Below, piece by piece: positions 1,894-19,780 of a DNA stretch of 32,000 nucleotides. The notes under the pieces were generated by a model. It had not been told where the DNA came from, ran no database searches, and was given only the letters and a program-made list of their open reading frames with translations. Position numbers and translations under genes: made by a program. The first letter of the stretch is position 1. Each line of letters opens with the position of its first letter. The DNA comes from Fastidiosibacter lacustris (lineage in GTDB: Bacteria; Pseudomonadota; Gammaproteobacteria; Francisellales; Francisellaceae): NCBI RefSeq assembly GCF_003428155.1, contig NZ_QLIR01000004.1, positions 30,001-62,000 of the forward strand, given 5' to 3'.

Positions 1894-4800
1894 ATGCCGT
1901 ACTCATACGCTGAGAAGAAAAGAATCCGTAAAGAATTTGGGAATCTTCCTAATATTCTAGATGTTCCATATTTGCTTGCCATTCAAGTAAATTCATACAA
2001 AGAATTTTTACAACAAGAAGTTAAGCCGCAAGTGCGTAAAAATATTGGCTTAGAAGCAGCGTTTAAATCTGTTTTTCCGATTGCTAGCGCTTCTGGCTAT
2101 TCCGAACTTCATTATGTAAGCTACCGTTTAGGTGAATCTACATTTGATGAAAATGAGTGTAGCATTCGAGGGGTAACTTATGCTGCACCCTTGCGTGTAA
2201 AATTACGATTGGTTGTTTACGATAAAGATGCACCGGTAGATAGTAAGGCGGTGAAAGATGTTCGTGAACAGGAAGTTTACATGGGTGAAATTCCGCTTAT
2301 GACGGAAAATGGGACCTTTATCATCAATGGTACTGAGCGTGTTGTGGTGTCTCAGTTGCACCGCTCACCAGGGGTATTTTTTGATCACGATAAAGGCAAG
2401 ACCCATTCCTCAGGTAAGATATTGCATTCAGCACGTGTTATTCCATATCGTGGTTCATGGCTAGACTTTGAGTTTGACCCAAAAGACTTGCTTTATGTGC
2501 GTATAGATAGACGTCGTAAGTTACCAGCAACAGTTTTGTTAAAGGCTTTGGGTTATACTAACGAAGCATTATTAAAGATTTTTTATGAGCCAGTTGACTT
2601 TGAAGTCCAGGATGGTGTGTTAATGATGACGTTTGACCCTAATTCATTAAAAGGCACAACGGCATCGTTTGATATTTTAGACCAAGACAATAAGGTGCTC
2701 GTTTCTGAAGGCAAGCGCATCACAGCGCGTCATACTAAGGTCATGAAAGAGCAAGGGCTTGACCGAATGGAAGTCCCTGTTTCTTACGTAATTGGCAAAG
2801 TATTATATGGTCGTATTGTAGATGAAACTTCAGGTGAGTTGTTGGCTGAAGCAAACGAAGAAATTACTCCGGTATTGTTAGACAAATTGTCTGATCGTGG
2901 TGTTAATAAATTCCAAACGCTCAACACCAATGATTTAGATCGTGGGGCTTATATTGCCGATACATTGCGTAGTGATATTTGTCGCAATCGTGATGAAGCG
3001 CTTGTTGAAATTTACCGTATGATGCGCCCAGGTGAACCCCCAACAAAAGAATCTGCTGAAAACTTATTTCAAGGTTTATTCTTTTCTGAAGAGCGTTATG
3101 ATTTATCAGCAGTTGGTCGGATGAAATTTAACAATCGTTTGGGACGTAAATCCGACAAAGGTGAAGGGATATTAAGCAAAGAAGATATTATCGACGTTGT
3201 AAAAACCTTGATTGATATTCGAGATGGTCGTGGTGAAGTTGATGATATCGACCACCTAGGTAATCGTCGTATTCGTGCGGTAGGTGAGATGACTGAAAAT
3301 CAATTTAGGGTAGGCTTGGTGCGTGTTGAGCGTTCCGTGCGTGAGCGTTTATCTTTAGTTGATCGTGAGAGTGCAATGCCACAAGATCTGGTCAATGCTA
3401 AACCAATTACCGCCGCGATTAAAGAATTCTTTGGTTCGGGTGCGTTATCACAATTTATGGATCAAGATAACCCGCTATCAGAAGTTACGCATAAACGTCG
3501 TATATCTGCATTGGGCCCTGGTGGTTTATCAAGAGATCGCGCTGGTTTTGAAGTGCGTGACGTACACACTACACATTATGGTCGTTTGTGTCCAATTGAA
3601 ACGCCAGAAGGTCCAAACATTGGTTTGATTAATTCTTTAGCGTGTTATGCGCGTACCAACCATTATGGTTTCTTAGAAGCCCCATATCGTAAAGTAATGG
3701 ATGGTGTTGCAACGGATGAAATTGAATACTTGTCTGCAATTGATGAAGGCAATTATGTGATTGCGCAAGCATCTGCTTCAATGGATGACAAAGGCCGTTT
3801 AACAGATGAGCTTATTCAATGTCGCTCAAAAGGTGAGGCAATTTTTACAACAGCAGATCAAGTACAATATATGGATGTATCTGCCAAACAAATGGTATCC
3901 GTGGCGGCAGCGCTTATCCCATTTTTAGAACACGATGATGCTAACCGTGCACTCATGGGATCAAACATGCAACGCCAAGCTGTACCTACATTAAAAGCTG
4001 AAAAGCCACTCGTTGGTACTGGAATGGAGCGTATCGTTGCAAGTGATTCAGGTACTTGTATTGTTGCTAAACGCTCAGGTGTTGTTGATTCAGTAGATGG
4101 TGGTCGTATCGTTGTTTGTGTGAACAATGATGAAATTGGTGAAAGTGATTCTGTCGTTGATATTTATAATTTGACCAAATTCCGTCGTTCTAATAAAAAT
4201 ACGTGTATTAACCAGCGCCCAATTGTAGAACCTGGTGATGTAATCAGAAAAGGTGATATCTTAGCAGATGGTTCTTCAACGGATATGGGCGAATTAGCAC
4301 TAGGTCAAAACCTACTCGTTGCATTTATGCCTTGGAATGGTTTTAACTTTGAAGATTCTATTCTTTTATCTGAGCGTGTTGTAGAGGATGATCGTTATAC
4401 TTCTATTCATATCGAAGAGTTAACTTGTATTGCACGTGACACTAAGCTTGGGGCAGAAGAAATTACAGCCGATATTCCAAATGTAAGTGAGTATGCACTT
4501 AATAAACTTGATGCCTCAGGTATTATTCATATTGGTGCAAACGTTGTTCCAGGGGATATTTTGGTTGCTAAAATTACACCCAAAGCAGAGCAACAGTTAA
4601 CTCCTGAAGAGAAGTTATTACGCGCTATTTTTGGTGAGAAGGCTTCTGATGTTAAAGATAGTTCATTGAGAATGCCAACTGGCATGTACGGTACGATTAT
4701 TAATGTGCAAGTCTTCACTCGTGATGGTGTCGAAAAAGATGCACGTTCAGTTGAAATTGAAAAAGAGGAACTGGTACGCATTCGTAAAGACTTGCGTGAC

Positions 4801-5985
4801 GAATATCGTATTGTTGAAGGTGCTGTACGCTCTTATCTATTTGAACAGTTAAGTGGTAAAAAAGCATTAGCTGGTCCAAATAACTTAAGGCGTGGTCAAG
4901 AAATCACAAAAGAATATTTGAAAACCATTGAGTTTATGCAATGGTTAGATCTTCGTGTTGAAGATGAAGCGACAACCGAAGCTATCGCTCGTTGTAAAGC
5001 GCAAATTGAACAGGCTCGCAAAGATTTTGAGGTAAAGTTTGAAGTTAAGCGGAAAAAGCTAACTCAAGGAGATGATCTATCGCCTGGAGTACTTAAAATT
5101 GTTAAGGTGTTTGTTGCCGTTAAACGTCGTATTCAGCCAGGTGACAAGATGGCAGGGCGTCATGGTAACAAAGGTGTAGTATCTCGTATTCTACCTATTG
5201 AAGATATGCCATACCTTGCAGATGGCACGCCAATGGATATCGTTCTAAATCCGTTAGGTGTTCCTTCTCGTATGAATATTGGTCAGGTGCTGGAAACACA
5301 TATGGGGTTAGCTGCACGTTCTCTAGGACACAAAATAAGTGATGCGTTAGAAGCTAGCCAAAAAGTACAAGATATCCGCAAAGTTTTAGAGGAAGTCTAC
5401 AACACCATTGGTCATAAAAAAGTGGATTTCAAGCAATTAGATGATGATCAAATCGTTGAGATGGCATATAACTTAAAAGCAGGTGTACCTATTGCAACGC
5501 CTGTGTTTGATGGTGCAAAAGAGAAAGACATCAAAGATCTTTTAAAACTTTGCGATATCAACGAAAGCGGTCAGATGCAGCTATTTGACGGTCGTACTGG
5601 TTTGGCATTTGATCGACCTGTAACCGTGGGATACATGTACATGCTGAAACTAGATCACTTAGTAGACGATAAGATGCACGCACGTTCGACAGGTTCGTAT
5701 AGTCTGGTAACACAACAGCCGCTAGGTGGTAAAGCCCAGTTTGGTGGTCAGCGTTTTGGTGAGATGGAGGTGTGGGCGCTACAAGCGTATGGTGCAGCAT
5801 ATACATTGCGTGAAATGTTAACCGTGAAGTCAGATGATGTGAATGGTCGTACCAAGATGTATAAGAACATCGTTGATGGTAATTTCAGGATGGATGCAAG
5901 TATTCCAGAATCGTTTAACGTACTAATGAAAGAAGTACGTGCATTAGCTATCGATATTGATCTTGAGTCTGACTTGAATAATTAA
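1894..5985 (+). CDS. rpoB: DNA-directed RNA polymerase subunit beta
   Basis: 1363 aa. N-terminus [16 protein letters not shown]. Rifampicin-cluster region [34 protein letters not shown]. Also NMQRQAVP and the C-terminal [32 protein letters not shown]. Confidence 0.99.
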
Positions 5986-6072
5986 TCTTATTGAGTCGCA
6001 ATTCATTAAATCGTTGCAGAAAGCATCTCTGTAACATGTAATCAAACTTTGCAAAGAATAGGAGTAGAAGCC

Positions 6073-9000
6073 TTGAAAAACTTACTAGGCGGTATGAAAC
6101 AGCAAGGTAAAGATTTAGAGTTTGACCGTATTCGAGTCGCTCTTGCTTCCCCTGAAATGATCCATTCATGGTCATATGGTGAAGTGAAAAAGCCAGAAAC
6201 AATTAATTATCGTACTTTTAAGCCAGAAAGAGATGGTTTATTTTGTGCTAAAATTTTTGGTCCAATTAAGGATTATGAATGTTTGTGTGGCAAATATAAG
6301 CGTTTAAAGCATCGCGGGATTATCTGTGAAAAGTGTGGCGTTGAAGTAACGCAAGCGCGTGTACGACGTGACAGAATGGGGCATATTGACCTTGCTTGTC
6401 CAGTGGCACACATATGGTATTTGAAGTCATTACCATCTCGTATAGGGTTACTGTTGGATATGACCTTGCGTGATATTGAGCGCATTTTATATTTTGAAGC
6501 CTATGCCGTAACAGATCCTGGGATGACACCATTTGAAAAAGGTCAGCTGCTAAATGAAGAAACGTATTTGGATGCCTTAGAAGAGTACGGTGATGAATTT
6601 GAAGCACAAATGGGTGCCGAAGCGATTCAAAAACTATTGATGGATACAGACTTAAATCATGAGATTGAAGTGATTCGAGAAGAGATTCCAACAACAAACT
6701 CAGAAACCAAGCTTAAGAAACTCACTAAGCGTTTAAAATTATTAGAATCATTCCGTGATTCGGGTAATAAGCCTGAGTGGATGATTATGACGGTTTTACC
6801 AGTATTACCCCCTGATTTACGTCCATTGGTGCCACTTGATGGTGGACGTTTTGCAACCTCAGACTTAAACGACTTATATCGTCGTGTCATTAACCGTAAC
6901 AATCGTTTAAAACGTTTATTAGAGTTAAGTGCACCTGATATTATCGTTAGAAACGAAAAACGTATGTTACAAGAAGCGGTGGACGCGCTATTAGATAATG
7001 GGCGCAGAGGGCGCGCAGTTACCGGTTCAAATAAGCGTGCGCTTAAATCACTTGCTGATATGATTAAAGGTAAGCAAGGCCGTTTCCGTCAAAACCTTCT
7101 TGGTAAACGTGTAGACTACTCTGGTCGCTCTGTGATTACAGTGGGACCAACTTTGCGGTTGCACCAATGTGGTTTGCCAAAGAAAATGGCATTAGAATTA
7201 TTTAAGCCATTTATTTATTCTAAACTTGAACACTATGGTCATGCGTCAACAATTAAAGCAGCCAAAAAAATGGTTGAGCGGGAAGAAGCTTTAGTTTGGG
7301 ATATTTTGGAAGAAGTGATTCGTGAGCATCCGGTGCTTCTAAACCGTGCGCCAACTTTGCATAGATTAGGTATTCAAGCATTTGAACCGACACTGATCGA
7401 GGGTAAAGCAATTCAGTTACATCCATTAGTGTGTACGGCATTTAATGCAGACTTTGACGGGGATCAAATGGCAGTTCACGTGCCATTAACGTTAGAAGCT
7501 CAGCTTGAAGCGCGTGTGCTGATGATGTCAACCAATAACATTTTGTCTCCTGCTAGTGGTACGCCTGTGATTGCACCAACACAAGATATTGTGCTTGGTC
7601 TTTATTACATCACACGTGAGCGGGTAAATGCCAAAGGTGAAGGTAAATTATTTGCTGATCTATTGCACGTTCAGCGTGCATATGATGCGGCAGTGGTTGA
7701 TGTGCATGCTAAAATAAAGGTGCGTTTGAATCATAAAGTATTGCTTGAATCTGGCAAATATATCGATGAAAAGGGTGTCGTGGAAACAACCGTAGGACGT
7801 GCACTATTATCCAGTATTTTACCAGAAGGTTTGCCATTTTCGTTGATTAATCAATCTTTAACTAAGAAGGTAATTGCCAAAATTATTGATCAGTGTTATC
7901 GTCGTTTAGGCACAAAGGCAACAGTTATTTTTGCTGACCAGCTAATGTATGCTGGTTATAAGTACTCAACGAAATCAGGCATTTCGATTGGGATCGATGA
8001 TATGATCATTCCTGATGCCAAAGAAATGATCCTCACTGAAGCAGAAAGTCAAGTCAAAGAAATTTCTGAGCAGTATGCCAGTGGTTTAGTGACTGCGGGT
8101 GAGCGTTATAATAAGGTTATCGATATTTGGTCGCGTGCTAATGAAAAAGTTGCTAAGTCGATGATGGAAGTGATCGCAAAAGAAAAAGTCCAGGATAAAG
8201 TAGGAAATGAAGTTGAACAAGAGTCTTTCAACTCTGTATATATGATGGCAGATTCAGGTGCAAGGGGCTCTGCAGCTCAAATTAGACAGCTTGCAGGGAT
8301 GCGTGGGCTCATGGCAAAACCAGATGGTTCCATTATTGAAACGCCAATTACTGCAAACTTCCGTGAAGGTTTGTCAGTATTGCAATACTTTACTTCAACC
8401 CACGGTGCGCGTAAAGGGCTTGCCGATACAGCATTAAAAACAGCAAACTCAGGGTACTTGACACGTCGTTTGGTTGATGTCGCTCAAGATTTGGTTATCG
8501 TTGAAGAAGATTGTGGTACAAACAAGGGTCTGACAGTATCAGCGCTGATTGAAGGAGGAGACGTTGTTGTTCCATTGGGGGAACGTTTATTAGGTCGAGT
8601 CAATGCAGAGGATATTTATAACCCAGGTGAAGATGAAGTCTTGGTTGAAGCTGGCACCTTGCTTGATGAAAAAACTGTAGAATTGATTGAGCAACATGGC
8701 GTCGATCAAGTCGTTATTCGCTCATCTATTACTTGTGAAACTCGTCGTGGTTTATGTGCTAAATGCTATGGTAGAGATTTGGCAAGAGGTCACTTGGTCA
8801 ATATGGGTGAATCTGTTGGTGTTGTAGCGGCACAATCCATCGGTGAACCAGGAACGCAGTTGACGATGCGTACCTTCCATATTGGAGGTGCGGCATCTCA
8901 AGATACGGCTGAAAATAATGTTCAGATCAAGAATGGTGGCAGAATCAAGTTCAACAACATTAAAACAGTTAAGAATCGTGAAGGTAACCATGTGGTGGTG

Positions 9001-10362
9001 TCACGCTCAGGTGAAATCGGTATTATCGATAAGTTTGGTCGTGAGCGCGAAAAATATAAAGTGCCATACGGTGCAGTGTTACCAGTCAATGATGACACTC
9101 AAGTAAAAGCTGGTGCTATCGTTGCAACCTGGGATCCACATACCCATCCCGTTGTTGCCGAGGTTGCAGGTCATATCAATTTCGTTGACTTTATTGATGG
9201 TGTGACCATGAAGCATCAAGCGGATGAAATGACTGGTTTGTCTAGTATTGTTATTACATCTGATTCACAGAAGAGTGGTAATAGAGATATAAGACCACTT
9301 GTACGCTTGATCAATGAGGTTGGTGAGGAGCTATGCTTTCCTAATACCAATATTCCTGCAAGTTATTTTATGCCGATTGGTGCGATTTTAAATATTGAAA
9401 ATGGCACGCAAATTGAAGTGGGTGATGTTATTGCACGTATTCCACAAGAAGGCTCAAAAAACAAGGATATTACCGGAGGTCTTCCACGCGTAGCTGACTT
9501 GTTTGAAGCTCGCCGTCCAAAAGATGCCGCTATTTTGGCAGAAGTTTCTGGAGTGGTGAGTTTTGGTAAAGAAACAAAAGGCAAGCGTCGCTTGATTATT
9601 TTGCCTGAAGAAGGTGAGCCAATTGAGATTATGATTCCTAAATGGCGTCATATTAACGTATTTGAAGGTGAGCATGTTTCACAAGGGGAAATTATCTGTG
9701 ATGGTCCGTTTGATCCGCATGAAATCCTACGCTTGAAAGGTGTACATGCGCTTGCTGAATATATTATCAATGAAATTCAAGAAGTTTATCGCTTACAAGG
9801 TGTGGGCATTAATGATAAGCATATTGAAACCGTTACCCGTCAAATGTTGCGTAAGGTAAACATCCTCGCCTCAGGAGATAGTAAATTTGTTGATGGTGAA
9901 CCGGTTGAGCTTGTGCAAGTACTGGAAGAAAATGATAAGCTTCTTGCAGAAGGCAAGCTTGTAGCAGTTTATGAGCCTATTTTATTAGGCATCACGAAAG
10001 CTTCATTGTCAACGGAGTCATTCTTATCAGCAGCATCTTTCCAAGAAACAACACGTGTCTTAACAGAAGCTTCGGTGAGTGGTCAGCAAGACTATTTACG
10101 TGGCTTAAAAGAAAATGTTCTCATCGGTCGTTTGATTCCATCTGGAACAGGACTTGCTTATCACCAAGAGCGTAAGCGTAAGCACATCGAAGAAATGGAA
10201 ACATTGGAATCAGGACCATCTATGGATGAGTTGGAAATGGCACTAAGTGCTGCGTTAAATGCAGATAACGAGGAAAACAGCGTTGACTTGGAGGATCTGT
10301 TTGTCATAAGTGACGATGATTTTAATGTAGCCGAGTCAGAAGATGATGAAGATGATGAATAA
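6073..10362 (+). CDS. rpoC: DNA-directed RNA polymerase subunit beta'
   Basis: Zinc-binding [23 protein letters not shown] and catalytic [14 protein letters not shown] are present. The start is moved from the track's 6049 to TTG 6073. AGGAG (6060-6064) lies 8 nt upstream of that [31 protein letters not shown] aligns residue for residue with the E. coli N-terminus as I recall it ([28 protein letters not shown]). ATG 6094 is an alternative start. Confidence 0.97.
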
Positions 10363-10393
10363 GTGGGTACATTAAAATAACTGTGTAAATTTT

Positions 10394-10431
10394 TTCGTAG
10401 GTTATAATGGGTACAATGTATAATCTACGAA
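10394..10431. repeat. Inverted repeat (13-nt arms, 12/13 complementary, 12-nt loop) 32 nt after the rpoC stop
   Basis: TTCGTAGGTTATA (10394-10406), loop ATGGGTACAATG, TATAATCTACGAA (10419-10431). A T5 run precedes it and no T-tract follows, so it is not a canonical intrinsic terminator on the + strand. Confidence 0.4.
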
Positions 10432-10777
10432 TGAAAGATGAAACAGGAACAACAAACTGAAGTACTAGGATAAGGACTTGATTTTACTATCAAATCAAAT
10501 GCTGATTTATCAAACTTGTTTAAATCTGCTTTTCTATTAAAGCAATTAACAAAAGGATTAGTTTAACCTGCTTTACAGGCTGAAATAAAAGATTATCTAA
10601 TCTGAATTAAATGCTTACATTTTAATATGGGATAGATAATAGTAAAGAAAGGACAAATAGGGATGTGGAAAAAATTATTTTTGGACAACGTTAGCGTTTT
10701 TAAGTAGCCCCTAAAAAGGGAGAGCCGCGGTAATGTAGCTCTCTTATCCAACTAACATTTAATTTCAAGGAGAAAAA

Positions 10778-10855
10778 ATGAATACGATTACTCATTTTGT
10801 AACGAGCATAAGTATTTTTAATCAGTCACAACCTATTGAAATTCACAAGGAGTAG
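10778..10855 (+). CDS. Possible 25-codon upstream ORF / leader peptide preceding the esterase gene
   Basis: AAGGAG (10767-10772) lies 5 nt upstream of ATG 10778. The ORF translates to MNTITHFVTSISIFNQSQPIEIHKE*. Its last codons AAG GAG TAG (10847-10855) also supply the AAGGAG Shine-Dalgarno 9 nt before the esterase ATG (10862). There is no homology support. Confidence 0.2.
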   Translation: MNTITHFVTSISIFNQSQPIEIHKE

Positions 10856-10861
10856 TGTCCC

Positions 10862-12499
10862 ATGATTCGTAAGTTCTTATTCAACTGTCTTTTGGTCCTG
10901 ACTGGCATCATAGTCCTGCTGGGAGGTATTTTCTCACTATATGCTCATAATACTGACGAGGTTGACGCTGATCCTGCCTTGGTTTTGACCAATAAGGGTG
11001 CTGTACGGGGCGTCATCCGCAATGGTGTGCGGGAGTTTAAGGGTATCCCCTATGCCAGACCTCCAGTTGGTGATTTGCGTTGGGCTATGCCGCAACCTGC
11101 AGAGGCGTGGAGTGGCGTACTGGATGTCTCTCAATATAAGAGCATCTGTCCGCAGGTTGAGCGCTATGGCATCCCCGAATCCAGTGAGAATGAGGATTGC
11201 TTATATATCAATGTCACAGCGCCTTACAAGGAAGCATCGGATCTGTCCCGTAAGCGCCCAGTAATCGTCTGGCTGCATGGCGGGGCGTTTGTGGGCGGAT
11301 CAAGTACCCTCTATCCGCTGGATTATATGTCTAAGAGCGGTGACGTGGTCATGGTTTCGATGAACTACCGGATCGGCGTGTTCGGATTTATGGCTCATCC
11401 CTCCTTAGAGGCGGATCACAACGGCGGTTACGGTCTAGAGGATCAGCGCGCTGCGCTGCGCTGGGTGAAGGCGAATATCGCTGCCTTCGGAGGAGACCCT
11501 GATAACGTGACAATCGCCGGCGAATCGGCCGGCGGTGCTGGCGTCTGTATGCACATCCTAGCGCCAGATGAAACCTCCGGCTTATTCCACAAGGCTATTA
11601 TTGAGAGTGCCGGCTGCGCTACCCCACTGCCGAGTGTCGAGGACGCCAACAAGATTGGTCTGCAGGTAGCCCAACAGGTTGGCTGTACGGATGAGGCAAC
11701 AGCACTGTCTTGTTTGCGCAACAAGCCGGTCAAGGATCTTCTCAACGGGGCGGTGAAAGTTTCGGGCTCGAATATCCTTACTTATATGCCGATCATCGGT
11801 ACCAAAACGAACCCGCTACCAGGGGCGGAGGCATTCCCTGCAGGCAAGTTCGTCAAGGTGCCTGTGATGTATGGTGGCACGCGTGATGAGTTGCGTCTGT
11901 ACGTTGCCTATGCCATGCAGGCTGGGCAAAGCATTACGGCAGATAACTACGCCGAACTATTGAAACAGACCTATGGCGACAAAACCGACGCTATTGTGAA
12001 ACAGTATCCGGCAAGCAATTATTCCTCGGTTGCTTCTGCGCTGGGCACTGTTTGGTCAGATTTCCGCCCGGATGTTGGTATCAATCACTGTATCTACCTG
12101 GAAAGTGCTAAGTTGATGCGCAAGTTCGTACCAGTTTATCAGTTCGTGTTTGCCGATCGCACCGCACCGCCGGTAACAACCAATCCCGGTTTCGAGATGG
12201 GCGCGGTCCACTCTTCCGAACTGATCTATCAATTCCCTCATTACGATAACACTCGTATGCTTGCAGGTCCCAATCTCTCACCCACCTCGCAAAAGCTCTC
12301 TGAACAGATGGTAGCCTACTTCACGAGCTTTGCCAGAACTGGTAAACCAAGCGCACAGGACGCACCGGTCTGGGGTATTTTTGATCGAGAAGACAGGGTC
12401 ATGAACTTCGAACCGGGCAAGCTTGGTTATTTCAATTCAGGTGTTTCGCACCACTGTGAGTTTTGGAAGACTCAGTATCCGTCTATCCTAACCCAGTGA
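10862..12499 (+). CDS. Type-B carboxylesterase/lipase (PnbA/cholinesterase family) with N-terminal membrane anchor or signal peptide
   Basis: 545 aa. The nucleophile elbow fits the type-B Ser signature: FGGDPDNVTIAGESAGG. Oxyanion-hole region WLHGGAFVGGS. EDCLYINVTAP nearly matches the second type-B signature. The catalytic His context is GAVHSSELIYQF. The N-terminus is hydrophobic (FLFNCLLVLTGIIVLLGGIFSLY). The gene is much more GC-rich than everything around it. Confidence 0.9.
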   Translation: MIRKFLFNCLLVLTGIIVLLGGIFSLYAHNTDEVDADPALVLTNKGAVRGVIRNGVREFKGIPYARPPVGDLRWAMPQPAEAWSGVLDVSQYKSICPQVERYGIPESSENEDCLYINVTAPYKEASDLSRKRPVIVWLHGGAFVGGSSTLYPLDYMSKSGDVVMVSMNYRIGVFGFMAHPSLEADHNGGYGLEDQRAALRWVKANIAAFGGDPDNVTIAGESAGGAGVCMHILAPDETSGLFHKAIIESAGCATPLPSVEDANKIGLQVAQQVGCTDEATALSCLRNKPVKDLLNGAVKVSGSNILTYMPIIGTKTNPLPGAEAFPAGKFVKVPVMYGGTRDELRLYVAYAMQAGQSITADNYAELLKQTYGDKTDAIVKQYPASNYSSVASALGTVWSDFRPDVGINHCIYLESAKLMRKFVPVYQFVFADRTAPPVTTNPGFEMGAVHSSELIYQFPHYDNTRMLAGPNLSPTSQKLSEQMVAYFTSFARTGKPSAQDAPVWGIFDREDRVMNFEPGKLGYFNSGVSHHCEFWKTQYPSILTQ

Positions 12500-12760
12500 T
12501 ATTCTGTACGGGGTGGAATTGGAGGCATCGTCTGTCTGTACGCATAAGGATGAGCGATTTATCAGGTTTTAAAGAATTGGAAAACTCCTAATGAACAAAT
12601 CAATTACGAGTTTTTTTGGATTTGAATTTGCTTTATCCTCATTTCTAGCCATGCTCAACAAAATAATATGTTATGACAGAAAAGTAGTGATTAGATTTTG
12701 CTTAATGACAACATATAGCTCAAAATAAGCATACTTTAAACGAAAAAAATAAGTGATTTT

Positions 12761-13438
12761 ATGCTTGTAACAAATGAAGATATAGCTATGAAAAAGCATA
12801 AGGACTTGTATTCAAGACGTGAAGAATTATTGAACACGTTAACTCATGCGATTGGAGCAGGATTTAGTATCATTGCACTTATTTTGATGATCTTGCGTGC
12901 AGCAGATACGGGGTACATGGTCAATGTCATAGCAGTTACTATTTTTGGCTTAACGCTTATTTCAATGTATGCTGCATCAAGCTTATATCATGGTATTACT
13001 CATCCAAAATGGAAAAAAGTGTTACGAAAAGTTGATCATTTAAATATTTATTTACTTATTGCTGGTACTTATACTCCTATTGCACTTATCGCTTTATCAG
13101 GCGTTAATAGTTGGTTGATTCTTGCTATTTTATGGGGATCTGTGATTGCTGGTTTTATTTATAAAATATTATTTTTTGGTGATGGTTGGTTATCTACTGC
13201 GTTATATGTCATTATGGGCTGGACGGCACTAGGATTTATTGTGCAGATTGTAGAAGCATTACCAGGCGGTTGTCTCATGTGGATTGTGCTAGGAGGGGCG
13301 TTATATACCAGTGGCGTTGTCTTTTATATGCTGGATGAAAAAATTGAGTTTTGTCACTTCTTGTGGCATTTATTCGTTTTTGCTGGCAGTCTAGCCCATT
13401 TTTTTGCAATCTATTTATACGTTGCTAGGATGGACTAG
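12761..13438 (+). CDS. Hemolysin III / PAQR-family integral membrane protein
   Basis: 225 aa with about seven hydrophobic helices. Family motifs: LNTLTHAIG, SSLYHG, DHLNIYLLIAGTYTP, and C-terminal HFLWHLFV. The true start may be ATG 12788 (MKKHKDLY...). Confidence 0.85.
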   Translation: MLVTNEDIAMKKHKDLYSRREELLNTLTHAIGAGFSIIALILMILRAADTGYMVNVIAVTIFGLTLISMYAASSLYHGITHPKWKKVLRKVDHLNIYLLIAGTYTPIALIALSGVNSWLILAILWGSVIAGFIYKILFFGDGWLSTALYVIMGWTALGFIVQIVEALPGGCLMWIVLGGALYTSGVVFYMLDEKIEFCHFLWHLFVFAGSLAHFFAIYLYVARMD

Positions 13439-13470
13439 AAATCGGAAATAAAGTACTTTTATCTGCGTAA

Positions 13471-14208
13471 GTGATATCAAAAATGAACAACATTAATCTA
13501 AAAAACAATATGAAAAAACAGGATAACAAGCATAATATCAGTGCGATGATTTTAGCAGCAGGGCGTGGGCGTAGAATGCAATCACTTACGGATCATACCC
13601 CTAAGCCCTTAATAGAAGTAAATGGCAAGGCATTGATTGAGCATCAAATAGAAAATTTGGCTGATACGGGTATAAGCCGTATCATTATCAACGTTGCGTA
13701 TCTTTCTGAACTGATTGTTAAGCGCATTGGCTTTGGTGAGCGTTGGGGTATTACAATTCGGTATTTGTATGAACCACTGGGTGCTTATGATACAGGTGGT
13801 GGGATTATACGGGCATTACCTTGGTTAAGCGATCCTTTTATCGTTGTAAATGCAGATATAATAAGCAATTACAACTTTCATTCAATAGTGGAACATAGTA
13901 AATTGATGAGTGAATTAGCACATTTAGTGCTTGTGCCTAATCCAGTGCATAATCTAAAAGGAGATTTTTGTTTAACAAGCGACAAGAAAATTATAGTGAT
14001 TAATGATAATTGCCAAAGTTACACTTATACGGGTATTAGTGTGTATAAAAAAGCATTATTTAAAGGTATCCCTGTCGGTTCTAAAATTTCTTTACCACGG
14101 ATTTGGCAATCTTTTATTAAACAAAAGCTAATTAGTGGGGAATTATTTCATGCGAATTGGTGTGACGTAGGAACTCCTGAGCGTTGGCAAGAAATCAACC
14201 GTGCCTAG
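13471..14208 (+). CDS. murU: Sugar-1-phosphate nucleotidyltransferase, MurU-like (N-acetylmuramate alpha-1-phosphate uridylyltransferase family)
   Basis: It has the NTP-transferase loop MILAAGRGRRMQSLTDHTPKPLIEV. It is collinear with Pseudomonas MurU as I recall it: AHLVLVPNP.H..GDF, YTGISVYKKALF, SGELFHANWCDVGTPERW. The start is uncertain (GTG 13471, ATG 13483 or ATG 13510). Confidence 0.65.
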   Translation: MISKMNNINLKNNMKKQDNKHNISAMILAAGRGRRMQSLTDHTPKPLIEVNGKALIEHQIENLADTGISRIIINVAYLSELIVKRIGFGERWGITIRYLYEPLGAYDTGGGIIRALPWLSDPFIVVNADIISNYNFHSIVEHSKLMSELAHLVLVPNPVHNLKGDFCLTSDKKIIVINDNCQSYTYTGISVYKKALFKGIPVGSKISLPRIWQSFIKQKLISGELFHANWCDVGTPERWQEINRA

Positions 14209-16567: not shown

Positions 16568-17035
16568 TTATTTCTCAACATAAGGATTATCAATACCAAG
16601 CTGTGCTAACAAAGAAATTTCAAGGTTCTCCATTTTGTCAGCATCGGCCTTTTCAATGTGGTCATAGCCGAGTAAATGCAGTATGCCATGTATTAATATA
16701 TGACACCAGTGATGATCGAGCAATTTACTCTGCTGTGTTGCTTCACTTTCTAAAACAATAGGGCAAATAATTAAATCCCCTAGAAAACTCTCCATATCTG
16801 CCTCTTGTGGTAAGCCTGGTGGCTGTTCAAAAGGAAAAGATAAGATATTCGTAGGCTTATCTTTATGGCGATAGGTACGATTGAAATACTGCATATCGTC
16901 CGTATTGACAATCTGTATGCTGATCATAGCTTGTTTAATATCAAGTGTATTAAGTACAACTTTGCACCAAACAGATAGTGTTCTTTCATCTGGGACGTTT
17001 AAACTATCAGGGTTATTAATATCCAGTATCAGCAT
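16568..17035 (-). CDS. ybeY: Endoribonuclease YbeY (rRNA maturation factor)
   Basis: Zinc motif HGILHLLGYDH. The track ORF extends to 17131 and would overlap ybeZ by 92 nt. ATG 17035 lies 4 nt after the ybeZ stop (TAG, 17042-17040). That start gives a typical 155-aa YbeY beginning MLILDINNPD. Confidence 0.9.
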   Translation of the reverse strand: MLILDINNPDSLNVPDERTLSVWCKVVLNTLDIKQAMISIQIVNTDDMQYFNRTYRHKDKPTNILSFPFEQPPGLPQEADMESFLGDLIICPIVLESEATQQSKLLDHHWCHILIHGILHLLGYDHIEKADADKMENLEISLLAQLGIDNPYVEK

Positions 17036-17039
17036 TGTT

Positions 17040-18020
17040 CTAGTAATCTTGGCTATGGCTTTGCTCATAGAAATCATATGCAGCAACAACCCGTTGCACA
17101 ATTGGGTGACGCACAACGTCCGCAGTTTCAAAGAAGGTCATACTAATCCCTTCAACTCCTGCTAAGACTTCAATTGCATGACGAAGCCCTGTAGTAATCC
17201 CCTTGGGCAAGTCTACTTGCGTGATGTCGCCTGTGACGATTGCAGTTGAGTTAAATCCAATGCGTGTTAGGAACATTTTCATTTGTTCTTTGGTCGTGTT
17301 TTGGCTTTCATCTAAAATGATGAATGAATCATTGATTGTGCGCCCACGCATGTAGGCTAAAGGTGCAATTTCAATAACTTGTTTTTCGATTAATTTGGTT
17401 ACCCGCTCAACACCCATCAAATCATATAAAGCATCATACATAGGACGCAAATAAGGGTCTACTTTTTGTGCCAAATCGCCTGGTAGAAACCCAAGCTTTT
17501 CCCCAGCTTCAACTGCAGGGCGAACAAGTACCAAGCGCTTAACTAGTCCTTTTTCAAAAGCAGCAACAGCACAAGCCATTGCAAGGTAGGTTTTACCGGT
17601 TCCAGCCGGTCCTATGCCAAAATTAATATCATTTTCATGAATACGCTTTAAATAACGTTCTTGATTTATTGTGCGAGGATTGATCGGACGTGGACCAATC
17701 ATAACAATAAACTCAGGAATAAATTTTTCTTTTTTGTCGTTTGGATTGCTCTTTGACATTTCATTTAATGCAATATTAAGTTCTTTGTTATTAAGTTCAA
17801 AATTTAGATCGTTAACCAGCTTTTGATATATCTCTTCTAAAAATGCTTTAGCGTCTTTAACGGCTGTTTTGGGTCCGACGATGCGAAAATTATTGCCTCG
17901 TTGGATAATTTCAACTGCTAAGTATTTTTCAATTAAATGTAAATTTTCATTTAGATTGCCACAAAGCTTTACCAGCATTTGGGCGCTATCTGGCTCAAGT
18001 TCGAATTGTATGGTTCTCAT
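17040..18020 (-). CDS. ybeZ: PhoH-like ATPase
   Basis: 326 aa. Walker A GPAGTGKTYLA and Walker B context FIILDESQNTT. Conserved position between miaB and ybeY. Confidence 0.92.
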   Translation of the reverse strand: MRTIQFELEPDSAQMLVKLCGNLNENLHLIEKYLAVEIIQRGNNFRIVGPKTAVKDAKAFLEEIYQKLVNDLNFELNNKELNIALNEMSKSNPNDKKEKFIPEFIVMIGPRPINPRTINQERYLKRIHENDINFGIGPAGTGKTYLAMACAVAAFEKGLVKRLVLVRPAVEAGEKLGFLPGDLAQKVDPYLRPMYDALYDLMGVERVTKLIEKQVIEIAPLAYMRGRTINDSFIILDESQNTTKEQMKMFLTRIGFNSTAIVTGDITQVDLPKGITTGLRHAIEVLAGVEGISMTFFETADVVRHPIVQRVVAAYDFYEQSHSQDY

Positions 18021-19704: not shown

Positions 19705-19780
19705 GTCCCCATCGTCTAGAGGCCTAGGACATCGCCCTTTCACGGCGGTAACAGGGGTTCGAATCCCCTTGGGGACGCCA
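19705..19780 (+). tRNA. tRNA-Glu (anticodon UUC), CCA encoded
   Basis: 76 nt. Acceptor stem GTCCCCA/TGGGGAC, D-arm GTCT-AGAGGCCTAGG-ACAT. The anticodon stem-loop CGCCC-TTTCACG-GGCG carries TTC. T-arm AGGGG-TTCGAAT-CCCCT, 3' GCCA. Nearly identical to E. coli tRNA-Glu as I recall it, with a compensatory acceptor-pair change. Confidence 0.97.

Follow-up and report, generated by a model that had tools for sequence, protein, structure and literature searches.

Why should Fastidiosibacter lacustris, a member of the Francisellaceae with a published genome G+C of 36.3-36.6% (PMC9837558), carry a single GC-rich esterase gene between rpoB/rpoC and an HlyIII (TrhA) gene, where did this gene come from, and what might it do? 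It lies in the 32,000-nt stretch of contig NZ_QLIR01000004.1 analyzed here (the window), and its product is an exact match to WP_116963564.1, a RefSeq protein of this species that is recorded on two contigs. The gene ORF has 52.5% GC against 36.5% elsewhere in the window; 543 other segments of its length average 36.4% (sd 3.9, maximum 42.8), which gives z = 4.2. The 500-nt segments of 11001-12500 have GC of 0.50-0.55, those of rpoBC 0.35-0.43 and those downstream of the gene 0.27-0.41, with an abrupt step at both ends of the gene. A preliminary description had called the gene compositionally foreign and its codons GC3-rich, counting 35 G+C in the 60 nt of line 11461-11520. We obtained the same count (rpoB lines average 24.4/60), and both points were borne out: GC3 is 0.568, the 21 other ORFs of the window having 0.21-0.38, and the codon-usage distance of 0.588 compares with 0.19-0.28 for ORFs of about its length or longer. 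In its atypical GC and codon usage relative to the host, the gene has the composition of a horizontally transferred one.

The protein matches Pfam COesterase (PF00135) over its full length (residues 39-535 on profile positions 3-515 of 515; E 9.4e-109; 365.1 bits, cut-off 27), in agreement with the three type-B signatures that had been claimed for it, all of which were located (FGGDPDNVTIAGESAGG at residues 209-225, WLHGGAF at 137-143, EDCLYINV at 111-118). Ser222, Glu343 and His450 are each invariant among 50 homologs, as are eight cysteines (96, 113, 229, 252, 275, 284, 410 and 532) and, in the oxyanion-hole motif, W137, G140, G141 and F143, with H139 and A142 nearly so. To judge from these alignments, the catalytic triad is intact. 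An AlphaFold2 model (pLDDT 90.5, pTM 0.89) used as a Foldseek query gave probability 1.00 and TM 0.78-0.86 to CES2, AChE and a bacterial esterase, pointing to a cholinesterase-like alpha/beta-hydrolase fold. Profile, triad with HGG(A) oxyanion hole, and modeled fold all assign the protein to the type-B carboxylesterase/lipase family, and esterase activity is predicted. NCBIfam holds no equivalog model for the esterase clade, and its only matches, to hormone-sensitive lipases, are sub-threshold. The features of the locus are collected in Table 1.

Table 1. Features in and around the esterase gene, with positions in the window
Feature	Position	Strand	Evidence
Two stable hairpins at and beyond the rpoC stop codon	10319..10432	+	MFE -31.3 kcal/mol, z -4.45, 0/200 shuffles as good; inverted repeat I3
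Shine-Dalgarno-containing block CACAAGGAGTAGTG	10844..10857	+	Left-most detectable homology to donor-like relatives
Type-B carboxylesterase CDS	10862..12499	+	ATG start, 545 aa plus stop; ORF list; exact match WP_116963564.1
Putative N-terminal Sec-type signal peptide, residues 1-28, MIRKFLFNCLLVLTGIIVLLGGIFSLYA	10862..10945	+	Alignment of 16 homologs
WLHGGAF oxyanion-hole motif, residues 137-143	11270..11290	+	Aligned to WIHGGAF of pNB esterase
Predicted catalytic nucleophile Ser222, in GESAG (11519-11533)	11525..11527	+	Aligned to GESAGG of Bacillus subtilis pNB esterase 1C7I/1QE3
Predicted catalytic acid Glu343, in GGTRDE	11888..11890	+	Aligned to TTRDE of pNB esterase
Predicted catalytic His450, in GAVHSSEL	12209..12211	+	Aligned to AFHTLEL of pNB esterase
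Tail 3' of the stop codon, 47% GC	12500..12565	+	GC 0.47 vs 0.27 in 12566-12760
Native upstream spacer of trhA, right bound of the insertion	12680..12747	+	78% identity over 68 nt to MAG spacer
Native pair trhA (HlyIII/PAQR) and MurU-like nucleotidyltransferase	12761..14208	+	Pfam, NCBIfam

Which known enzymes does it resemble? Among solved structures the best sequence match is B. subtilis PnbA (1QE3, 1C7I, 1C7J; E 4e-69, residues 40-512), likewise a bacterial PF00135 type-B enzyme, with which the GESAG serine, TRDE glutamate, histidine and HGGAF oxyanion hole align. PnbA is cytoplasmic and is not known to have a signal peptide or the conserved disulfide set, whereas the window protein is about 50 residues longer, with a predicted Sec leader and eight cysteines that are invariant; the two are distant paralogs, not orthologs. 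The best Foldseek matches are mouse CES2 and human AChE (e.g. PDB 9G73, 8AXC, 5HF8, 4EY4; E ~1e-41, TM 0.78-0.80, 28-31% identity), which share fold and triad. Cysteine pairs 96-113, 275-284 and 410-532 presumably match the AChE disulfides in position, and the Cys229/Cys252 pair, also invariant, is extra relative to CES2 and AChE. The choline-binding Trp84/86 of AChE is in the omega loop between the cysteines of the first disulfide. In the window protein the corresponding Cys96-Cys113 loop, CPQVERYGIPESSENEDC, is short (18 residues including both cysteines) and free of Trp; the protein therefore lacks the Trp with which cholinesterases bind choline, and identification as a cholinesterase was rejected. 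Secreted bacterial family members that act on xenobiotic or polymer esters, namely fumonisin B1 esterase (8S6D) and the polyurethane-degrading esterase of Thermaerobacter marianensis (8WDM/8YMA), also match (E 1e-58 to 1e-59, TM 0.79-0.86), but at only ~32% identity and with no common gene context.

The protein had been described as membrane-anchored. An export signal does appear to be present. All aligned homologs have a hydrophobic N-terminal leader, most with an (L)-x-A|A-type site; in the window protein R3 and K4 precede a stretch of 20 residues without charge, after which comes L-Y-A, aligned with LHA, LYA or LRA of the family, and in the 16-homolog alignment the putative cleavage site LYA|HN lines up with LHA|A and LYA|A. 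A permanent anchor is another matter, since the N-terminus aligns with the cleavable-type Sec signal peptide of the family. Anchoring is nevertheless possible: in 98 of 101 homologs the h-region is less hydrophobic than here (leader hydropathy KD19 2.49, family median 1.76), so an uncleaved signal anchor may be present. In the AlphaFold2 model residues 2-21 of the leader form a helix of low confidence, and residues 21-30 are disordered. The invariant cysteine pairs, at what we take to be the disulfide positions of cholinesterases, argue for an oxidizing compartment. The enzyme is thus predicted to cross the inner membrane.

The homolog search covered 5.8 billion proteins, and 7954 of 8000 scored candidates had E <= 0.001. 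The best homolog is 85% identical, and no near-identical donor copy was found. Identity is 58-85% for the best 120, whose organism names, where the source gives one (most entries have none), are all of bacteria or bacterial metagenome bins. Neither Fastidiosibacteraceae nor Francisellaceae is named among these best 120 of 7954, most of them nameless, and from the names in this list the gene is probably missing from sister genera. In a neighbor-joining tree the window sequence is sister to P0001 (95/100 bootstraps), then joins P0002 (100/100) and then Desulfonatronum zhilinae P0004 (87/100). The sequences closest to it are from metagenome contigs. Contig GC for P0001, P0002 and P0004 is 66.7, 63.0 and 59.2%, with gene GC3 of 0.89, 0.81 and 0.77, respectively, and the clade consists of Desulfobacterota-like and high-GC proteobacterial genomes (bootstraps 87-100%). 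One member, L097, which is only 66% identical to the window gene, lies in a context of 48% GC and has a GC3 of 0.52. The gene phylogeny appears incongruent, and the gene was most likely obtained horizontally from another bacterium, the donor clade being found in genomes of 59-67% GC with Desulfonatronum as nearest named member.

The family had also been taken to be largely eukaryote-associated, a view that the bacterial names throughout the best 120 (most of them nameless) and the nesting in a bacterial clade do not bear out. The gene lies among thousands of bacterial sequences and is therefore not eukaryote-derived; such an origin is ruled out by the bacterial nesting at 87-100% bootstraps, eukaryotic enzymes being 28-31% identical. 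A tblastn search of a plasmid collection gave a best match of 43% identity and so points to no plasmid vector, and a scan of viral contigs found no relative. The neighbors of clade members vary by locus (TldD, HxlR, IalB, Prs, MurI, MFS, SDR), and no conserved operon partner was found in the gene contexts of the homologs apart from an SDR gene that lies upstream in L084 as well as in L105.

How much DNA came with the gene? The 14-nt block CACAAGGAGTAGTG is identical, with the same 4-nt spacing before ATG, in the closest homolog (L084, on a 67% GC contig), and L105/L106 have the variant GTAAGGAGTCGTG. Identity of this block in the closest homolog indicates that the Shine-Dalgarno sequence was imported with the gene, and the translation signals are not host-like, as their AT-richness had been read to mean. 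At the other end, the tail has weak similarity to the sequence after the stop codon in L105/L084 (CTGTACGGGG against CTGT-GGGG) and probably marks where the imported DNA stops on the 3' side. A 25-codon ORF (10779-10856) with a strong Shine-Dalgarno sequence was considered as a leader peptide, for which there was no support: its last codons are the imported block.

The ORF list, Pfam neighbors and GC profile agree with the proposal of a single-gene insertion between rpoC and housekeeping genes. On the left, the hairpins at the end of rpoC are probably the rpoBC terminator as judged by folding, and if so the esterase gene would not simply be co-transcribed with rpoBC. A promoter scan of the 499-nt spacer upstream of the gene gave no site on the + strand, a terminator scan gave terminator-like matches inside the coding sequence at chance frequency, folding of 12497-12630 and 10680-10760 was no better than for shuffles, and Rfam on 10300-12850 gave one sub-threshold snoRNA chance match only. 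On the right, the trhA spacer has its counterpart in GCA_027621155.1, a related MAG, where it directly precedes trhA (L087/L088 2693-2758). Comparison of the rpoC-hlyIII interval with relatives, suggested earlier as a check, revealed that the arrangement there differs. In Caedibacter taeniospiralis and a related MAG, trhA and the murU-like gene adjoin mlaEFD, not rpoC, and in one relative the genes after rpoC are tsaD and amidohydrolase genes (P0244, the sole usable context from a protein search with the RpoC C-terminus, which gave mostly metagenomic fragments). The matches listed in a scan of genome contigs with the RpoC C-terminus were distant gammaproteobacteria at 63-71% identity, too remote to inform synteny, and an exact 68-nt scan of genome contigs gave no match. 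The esterase gene appears, from these comparisons, to sit at a lineage-specific synteny breakpoint.

As noticed before, the site has no visible scar. The tRNA gene nearest the esterase is tRNA-Glu at 19705, 7 kb away; the ORF list and Pfam give no integrase, transposase or IS between rpoC and trhA; and flanking repeats are limited to chance-level matches of 10-14 nt, the best of which (13/14) is, on our rough estimate, about what chance would give. The insertion is like a classical genomic island in its deviant composition, restriction to one lineage and absence from the corresponding place in relatives, but it is a single gene of ~1.7 kb without integrase, IS, adjacent tRNA or direct repeats above chance, and neither that class nor an integrative mobile element (no integrase or transposase) was accepted.

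Could the gene have been joined to Fastidiosibacter DNA only in the computer, as an assembly chimera or through a contaminant contig? The abrupt GC step at each end of one gene is what such a join would leave, and a chimeric assembly had been raised as a possibility. The window is, however, 99.75% identical and collinear over 20.7 kb with contig JAMBMW010000006.1 of 'Candidatus Nebulobacter yamunensis', with identical junctions, and the two assemblies are independent, one from a pure-culture isolate and the other from a ciliate metagenome bin, JAMBMW (PMC9837558). The esterase gene has four SNPs between the strains, all at third codon positions (2.4 per kb), and its neighbors have 0-4 per kb, most 1.5-4. 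The same junctions in an independent assembly and a SNP density like that of the flanks mean that the gene is not an assembly chimera; its codons, moreover, have drifted toward host usage, and an artefact of this kind can be dismissed for practical purposes. This sibling strain also substantiates the suggestion of a possibly host-associated bacterium: the species is F. lacustris, and the near-identical 'Ca. Nebulobacter yamunensis' is an obligate endosymbiont of the ciliate Euplotes. A term search of the published comparison of the two genomes found neither the esterase nor horizontal transfer mentioned (PMC9837558).

When did the gene arrive? The nearest known relative, P0001, has 85% protein and 79% DNA identity with dS 1.24, and dN/dS between the two is 0.05 in the mature part and 0.38 in the signal-peptide region. 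Substitutions were polarized by parsimony with P0002 and P0004 as outgroups, multiple hits being ignored. On this basis 84 third-position changes in the window lineage are GC>AT and 2 are AT>GC, the first-position counts being 19 and 0; in the P0001 lineage the corresponding third-position counts are 6 and 10, and ancestral GC3 is estimated at 0.86. The 84:2 bias looks like amelioration, which implies that the transfer is old, not recent. The gene also predates the split of the two sequenced strains. These results, with dS of ~1.24 to the nearest relative, do not support the earlier view that the gene was recently acquired. That view could be rescued if the donor already had ~52% GC, the intermediate composition then being the donor's own and not the outcome of amelioration in the host. 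Family members of intermediate GC do exist (L097, GC3 0.52 with 48% GC flanks), the gene is still far from host composition, and no ortholog was seen in sister genera by the names in the best-120 list. Nonetheless, the three nearest relatives have GC3 of 0.77-0.89 and L097 is only 66% identical, the best match among 5.8 billion proteins is at 85% with no near-identical donor copy, the gene is older than the strain split with the SNP density of flanking core genes, and the AT shift is strongest in the signal-peptide region (GC 0.44), where constraint is weak, as in-host drift predicts. We consider a recent arrival unlikely. The shift could still lie partly or wholly in an intermediate-GC donor before transfer, so that residence in Fastidiosibacter would be bounded only by the strain split; amelioration within the host is what we infer.

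Is the gene foreign at all? A native, vertically inherited gene might keep high GC by selection, for instance on codon usage or amino-acid content, and be lost in related genera, and both the strong purifying selection (dN/dS 0.05) and the flanks free of mobility scars would suit it. Its nesting in the Desulfobacterota-like and high-GC proteobacterial clade (87-100% bootstraps) would not; nor would the 84:2 bias at silent sites, by which GC is being lost, not maintained, the GC3 of only 0.21-0.32 in the highly expressed native genes rplL, rpoB and rpoC, or a non-coding Shine-Dalgarno block held in common with a 67% GC contig. A vertical origin is highly improbable and has been largely refuted already.

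We therefore favor, with a probability of about 0.82 for the joint claim, a functional, Sec-exported type-B carboxylesterase, predicted as such, whose gene came by an old transfer from another bacterium, has been ameliorating since, and was inserted without a scar. An import of ~1.7 kb would have comprised the gene's own Shine-Dalgarno block, the coding sequence and perhaps ~65 nt of 3' tail. It would have integrated by recombination, either illegitimate or associated with a rearrangement, at a site flanked by the rpoBC terminator and the native promoter of trhA, leaving no mobile-element scar. Strong purifying selection has acted on it since the split from the nearest known relative, while AT-biased mutation would have taken its silent sites about halfway from GC3 ~0.86 toward the host's ~0.29. 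Once across the inner membrane, the enzyme would either be free in the periplasm or stay attached through a signal peptide that is unusually hydrophobic and remains uncleaved, and it would hydrolyze a carboxylic ester.

The gene itself is already annotated and is an ordinary, horizontally acquired one; a bacterial rather than eukaryotic source and a long-ago date make this ordinary gene transfer. Its significance beyond the F. lacustris genome is small, and current understanding is unchallenged. It is, all the same, a well-bounded textbook case of single-gene transfer from high-GC bacteria into a relative of Francisella with 36% GC, with its own ribosome-binding site kept, and amelioration seems to have been caught about halfway at dN/dS 0.05, which could make it a calibration example for amelioration models. 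The esterase is, besides, a candidate accessory function in a species that spans free-living and obligately endosymbiotic lifestyles. A bolder reading, which we regard as quite a long shot, is that the imported enzyme was repurposed for life within protists, its leader being an uncleaved anchor that tethers it to the envelope, where it acts on host esters or lipids and aids life in the ciliate. The leader differs from that of the closest homolog by D22>G, R24>F and P25>S, AT-driven changes that may, under such repurposing, turn it into an uncleaved signal anchor; the esterase would then be among the few accessory functions that let Fastidiosibacter or 'Ca. Nebulobacter' live in ciliates. Between the free-living strain and the obligate endosymbiont the esterase protein does not differ.

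The gene between rpoC and trhA, which encodes a type-B carboxylesterase, stands apart from its surroundings in base composition. The spacers have a G+C of 0.27-0.35, the ORF 0.50-0.64, and the value drops again past about 12565. The ORF as a whole has 52.5% G+C, against 36.4 +/- 3.9% (maximum 42.8%) in 543 other windows of equal length (z 4.2); its GC3 (G+C at third codon positions) of 0.568 lies above the 0.21-0.38 spanned by the 21 other ORFs of the window, and in codon usage its distance from the rest, 0.588, is roughly double what any similarly long ORF shows. The ramp at the 5' end is gradual because no other part of the gene has as little G+C (0.44) or is under as weak a constraint (dN/dS 0.38 vs 0.05) as the leader segment (region of residues 1-39). 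The preliminary description had called the gene GC-rich and foreign, which these figures bear out; we obtained the same count of 35/60 G+C in line 11461-11520, and the three motifs it quoted are present at residues 209-225, 137-143 (WLHGGAF) and 111-118 (EDCLYINV).

Features of the window by position
Feature	Position or length	Strand	Remark
rplJ, rplL	with rpoB/rpoC		from ORF list and Pfam/NCBIfam
rpoB	1894-5985
rpoC	6049-10362
Two hairpins	10319-10432	+	astride and past rpoC stop
Spacer rpoC to esterase	499 nt
Short ORF	10779-10856	+	25 codons
Shine-Dalgarno block	10844-10857
Esterase	10862-12499	+	545 aa
Spacer esterase to trhA	261 nt
Conserved trhA spacer	12680-12747
trhA (HlyIII/PAQR)	12761-13438
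MurU-like nucleotidyltransferase	13471-14208
lnt, corC, ybeY, phoH, miaB	beyond MurU-like gene	opposite
ybeY as mechanically called	16568-17131	-	TTG start, 187 aa
phoH	17040-18020	-
AT-rich stretch	20000-29000
ORF	22341-22679		no Pfam match
ORF	22947-24152		no Pfam match
Pentapeptide-repeat protein	24241-27432	+	1063 aa
Type IVb pilus genes	29155-31393	+
Bundlin/PilS-like prepilin	29155-29688	+	N-methylation motif
ORF between prepilin and TcpQ-like gene	29869-30705		no Pfam match
TcpQ-like protein	30629-31393	+

The Pfam COesterase model covers the protein end to end (E 9.4e-109), while NCBIfam has no specific model matching it. Its best solved relative is the Bacillus subtilis p-nitrobenzyl esterase (E 4e-69), whose GESAGG, TRDE and H-x-x-E-L motifs align with S222, E343 and H450, and whose HGGAF oxyanion hole aligns with residues 139-143. 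These triad and oxyanion-hole residues are invariant among 50 aligned homologues, as are eight cysteines (96, 113, 229, 252, 275, 284, 410 and 532). An AlphaFold2 model made from the same alignment (pLDDT 90.5, pTM 0.89) can be superposed, with TM scores of 0.78-0.86, on mouse CES2, on AChE of human and Torpedo, and on a bacterial polyurethane esterase. A cholinesterase identity was rejected, the C96-C113 loop being short and without Trp. Does gene context hint at a substrate? Within the clade it does not; the neighbours (TldD, HxlR, IalB, Prs, MurI, an HD-domain protein) differ between loci. In contig L084, which encodes the closest homologue (P0001), an MFS transporter lies 55 nt downstream, and L084 (1-111) and L105 (2304-3092), another contig with a close homologue, have in common an upstream short-chain dehydrogenase (SDR) gene ending ...GENIYVDSGYFITGMGRCD; none of this SDR or MFS context was transferred to Fastidiosibacter.

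Residues 1-39 lie N-terminal of the catalytic domain, and a hydrophobic leader of signal-peptide type is found there in 16/16 aligned homologues, where most have a basic residue after Met, then some 15 uncharged residues, then a P-L-H-A|A-type site. In the window protein R3/K4 are retained and the aligned site reads L-Y-A|H. The hydrophobic run spans 20 residues, with a 19-residue hydropathy of 2.49 that exceeds 98 of 101 homologues (homologue median 1.76); relative to the closest homologue, D22 is replaced by G, R24 by F and P25 by S. Since R3/K4 and the hydrophobic leader align with the family signal peptides, export via Sec, with the leader either cleaved or kept as an anchor, is well supported at the sequence level (export as such had been proposed), and the eight conserved cysteines point the same way. 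We picture an enzyme that would be exported by Sec, fold in the periplasm with disulfide stabilisation, and hydrolyse a carboxylic ester with its Ser-Glu-His triad.

A homology search scored 8000 candidates, of which 7954 passed E <= 0.001. Every organism name given by the source among the best 120 is bacterial, the majority of the 120 carrying no name. Named homologues include those of Desulfonatronum zhilinae (P0004; 77% identity in the search, 73% over the full-length alignment), Bradyrhizobium, Methylocystis and Rhodopseudomonas (70%), Syntrophorhabdaceae (69%), Microvirga (68%) and Thiomicrospira (66%). The query's own record is absent from this set because a '90% identity' protein cluster joins WP_116963564.1 with P0001, though their BLASTP/MAFFT identity is only 84-85%. 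In a neighbour-joining tree of 50 sequences the esterase is sister to P0001 (85% identity; 95/100 bootstraps), followed outward by P0002 (100/100) and Desulfonatronum (87/100). The genes for P0001, P0002 and P0004 (GC3 0.89, 0.81 and 0.77) come from contigs with 66.7, 63.0 and 59.2% GC, and 5/6 further metagenomic relatives sit on 63-65% GC contigs. The donor was thus bacterial, and its genome most likely GC-rich; given the names, the nesting within a bacterial clade (87-100/100) and the high-GC contigs, the family is not, as the earlier view had it, 'largely eukaryote-associated' in any relevant sense.

The translation signals had been taken as host-like. Blastn of the region against L084, however, gave 79% identity over 1656 nt, from 18 nt 5' of the ATG to the stop codon; the first 14 nt of the match, CACAAGGAGTAGTG, are identical in both, including the AAGGAG Shine-Dalgarno and its spacing. 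In L105/L106 the corresponding block reads GTAAGGAGTCGTG. The signal is thus the donor's and came with the gene. No similarity to L084 was left 5' of 10844 by blastn, and the stop codon is followed by 66 nt of 47% GC, weakly resembling the relatives' 3' flank, and then by a 27% GC spacer. Because homology starts at the Shine-Dalgarno block and the GC-richer tail ends 66 nt past the stop, the import would measure about 1.66-1.72 kb. The short ORF (Table), MNTITHFVTSISIFNQSQPIEIHKE, is probably a chance ORF; it has a strong AAGGAG 7 nt upstream, its stop codon falls within the esterase's Shine-Dalgarno block, and the two strains differ by a 1-nt indel at 10773, just 5' of it.

Could the gene be an assembly artefact, or a recent arrival? 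The esterase and TrhA match exactly WP_116963564.1 and WP_116963565.1 of Fastidiosibacter lacustris, and the exact esterase is on record for two contigs. The same gene order occurs on contig JAMBMW010000006.1 of GCA_024208055.1, at 99.75% identity across 20.7 kb, so that the window presumably comes from the type strain. That assembly belongs to 'Candidatus Nebulobacter yamunensis', which lives as an obligate endosymbiont in the ciliate Euplotes aediculatus and whose genome was assembled out of the host metagenome; F. lacustris SYSU HZH-2 (QLIR) is cultivable, and the two share an ANI of 99.38%, with G+C of 36.57% and 36.33% (Giannotti et al. 2022, PMC9837558). Two independent assemblies thus show the same junctions near 10.8 and 12.5 kb, which are therefore real and not chimeric, and the gene was already there before the free-living strain and the endosymbiotic one split. 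The esterase has four SNPs between them, all at third codon positions (2.4 per kb; 0-4 in neighbour genes, most 1.5-4, and 6-11 in spacers). Selection has maintained the function under both lifestyles.

Recency fares no better. Against P0001, dS is 1.24 and dN/dS 0.068 (0.053 in the mature part). When P0002 and P0004 serve as outgroups, third positions in the window lineage show 84 GC>AT vs 2 AT>GC changes and first positions 19 vs 0; for the P0001 lineage the third-position counts are 6 vs 10. More distant outgroups gave 50 vs 0, and majority-rule parsimony 142 vs 5 with an ancestral GC3 of 0.86. From 0.86 to 0.568 now, with the host near 0.29, the gene has come about halfway to equilibrium composition; amino-acid composition has shifted as well (FYMINK 0.253 vs 0.218). 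Third-position changes on the window lineage amount to about 0.3 per site, against 4 of 546 between strains, so that by our own arithmetic the shift corresponds to roughly 40 times the strain divergence. Part of it may predate entry into Fastidiosibacter and have taken place in an intermediate host that has not been sampled. Of the preliminary reading, then, foreignness and export stand, while eukaryotic affinity, host-like signals and recency do not: what remains is a bacterial esterase gained by horizontal transfer, ordinary and annotated before, neither surprising nor new in kind, and a nice example of amelioration within an interesting organism.

Domain, tRNA and repeat searches agreed with the first reading, as the gene is flanked neither by a tRNA, an integrase or an IS nor by any significant repeat; no close copy was found on plasmids (best 43% identity) or viral contigs. 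The site is a synteny breakpoint. In Caedibacter taeniospiralis, and likewise in a MAG with an 80%-identical TrhA, the trhA and murU-like pair is divergent beside mlaEFD; the trhA neighbours in Fangia and in a Tara contig are different again, and in a relative with a 76%-identical RpoC C-terminus tsaD and amidohydrolase genes come after rpoC. The rpoC-hlyIII interval exists only in this species, so that relatives offer no counterpart for the comparison suggested in the preliminary description. The conserved spacer just 5' of trhA, probably its promoter or 5' UTR, matches MAG GCA_027621155.1 (L087/L088 2693-2758) at 78% over 68 nt, which bounds the insertion on the right; upstream of it lies mlaE in the MAG and the esterase in the window. 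To the left, the two stable hairpins (MFE -31.3 kcal/mol, z -4.45; 0/200 shuffles as stable) are probably the rpoBC terminator.

Elsewhere in the window, the true ybeY start is probably downstream of the TTG call, since YbeY is annotated with 169 aa in JAMBMW and the called ORF overlaps phoH by 92 nt. Across the AT-rich stretch GC is 27-35% in most windows of 500 nt, with two higher ones at 0.38 and 0.41; it stays mostly under the genome mean of 36.3% and well under the rpoBC region (about 41%). The stretch is possibly a second accessory region, AT-rich in this case, and is assigned a histidine kinase/response regulator pair and the three ORFs without a Pfam match (22341-22679, 22947-24152 and 29869-30705). 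The pentapeptide-repeat protein (PF00805, PF13599, PF13576), mostly made of these repeats and unusually long for its class, lies within a stretch of 31-41% GC.
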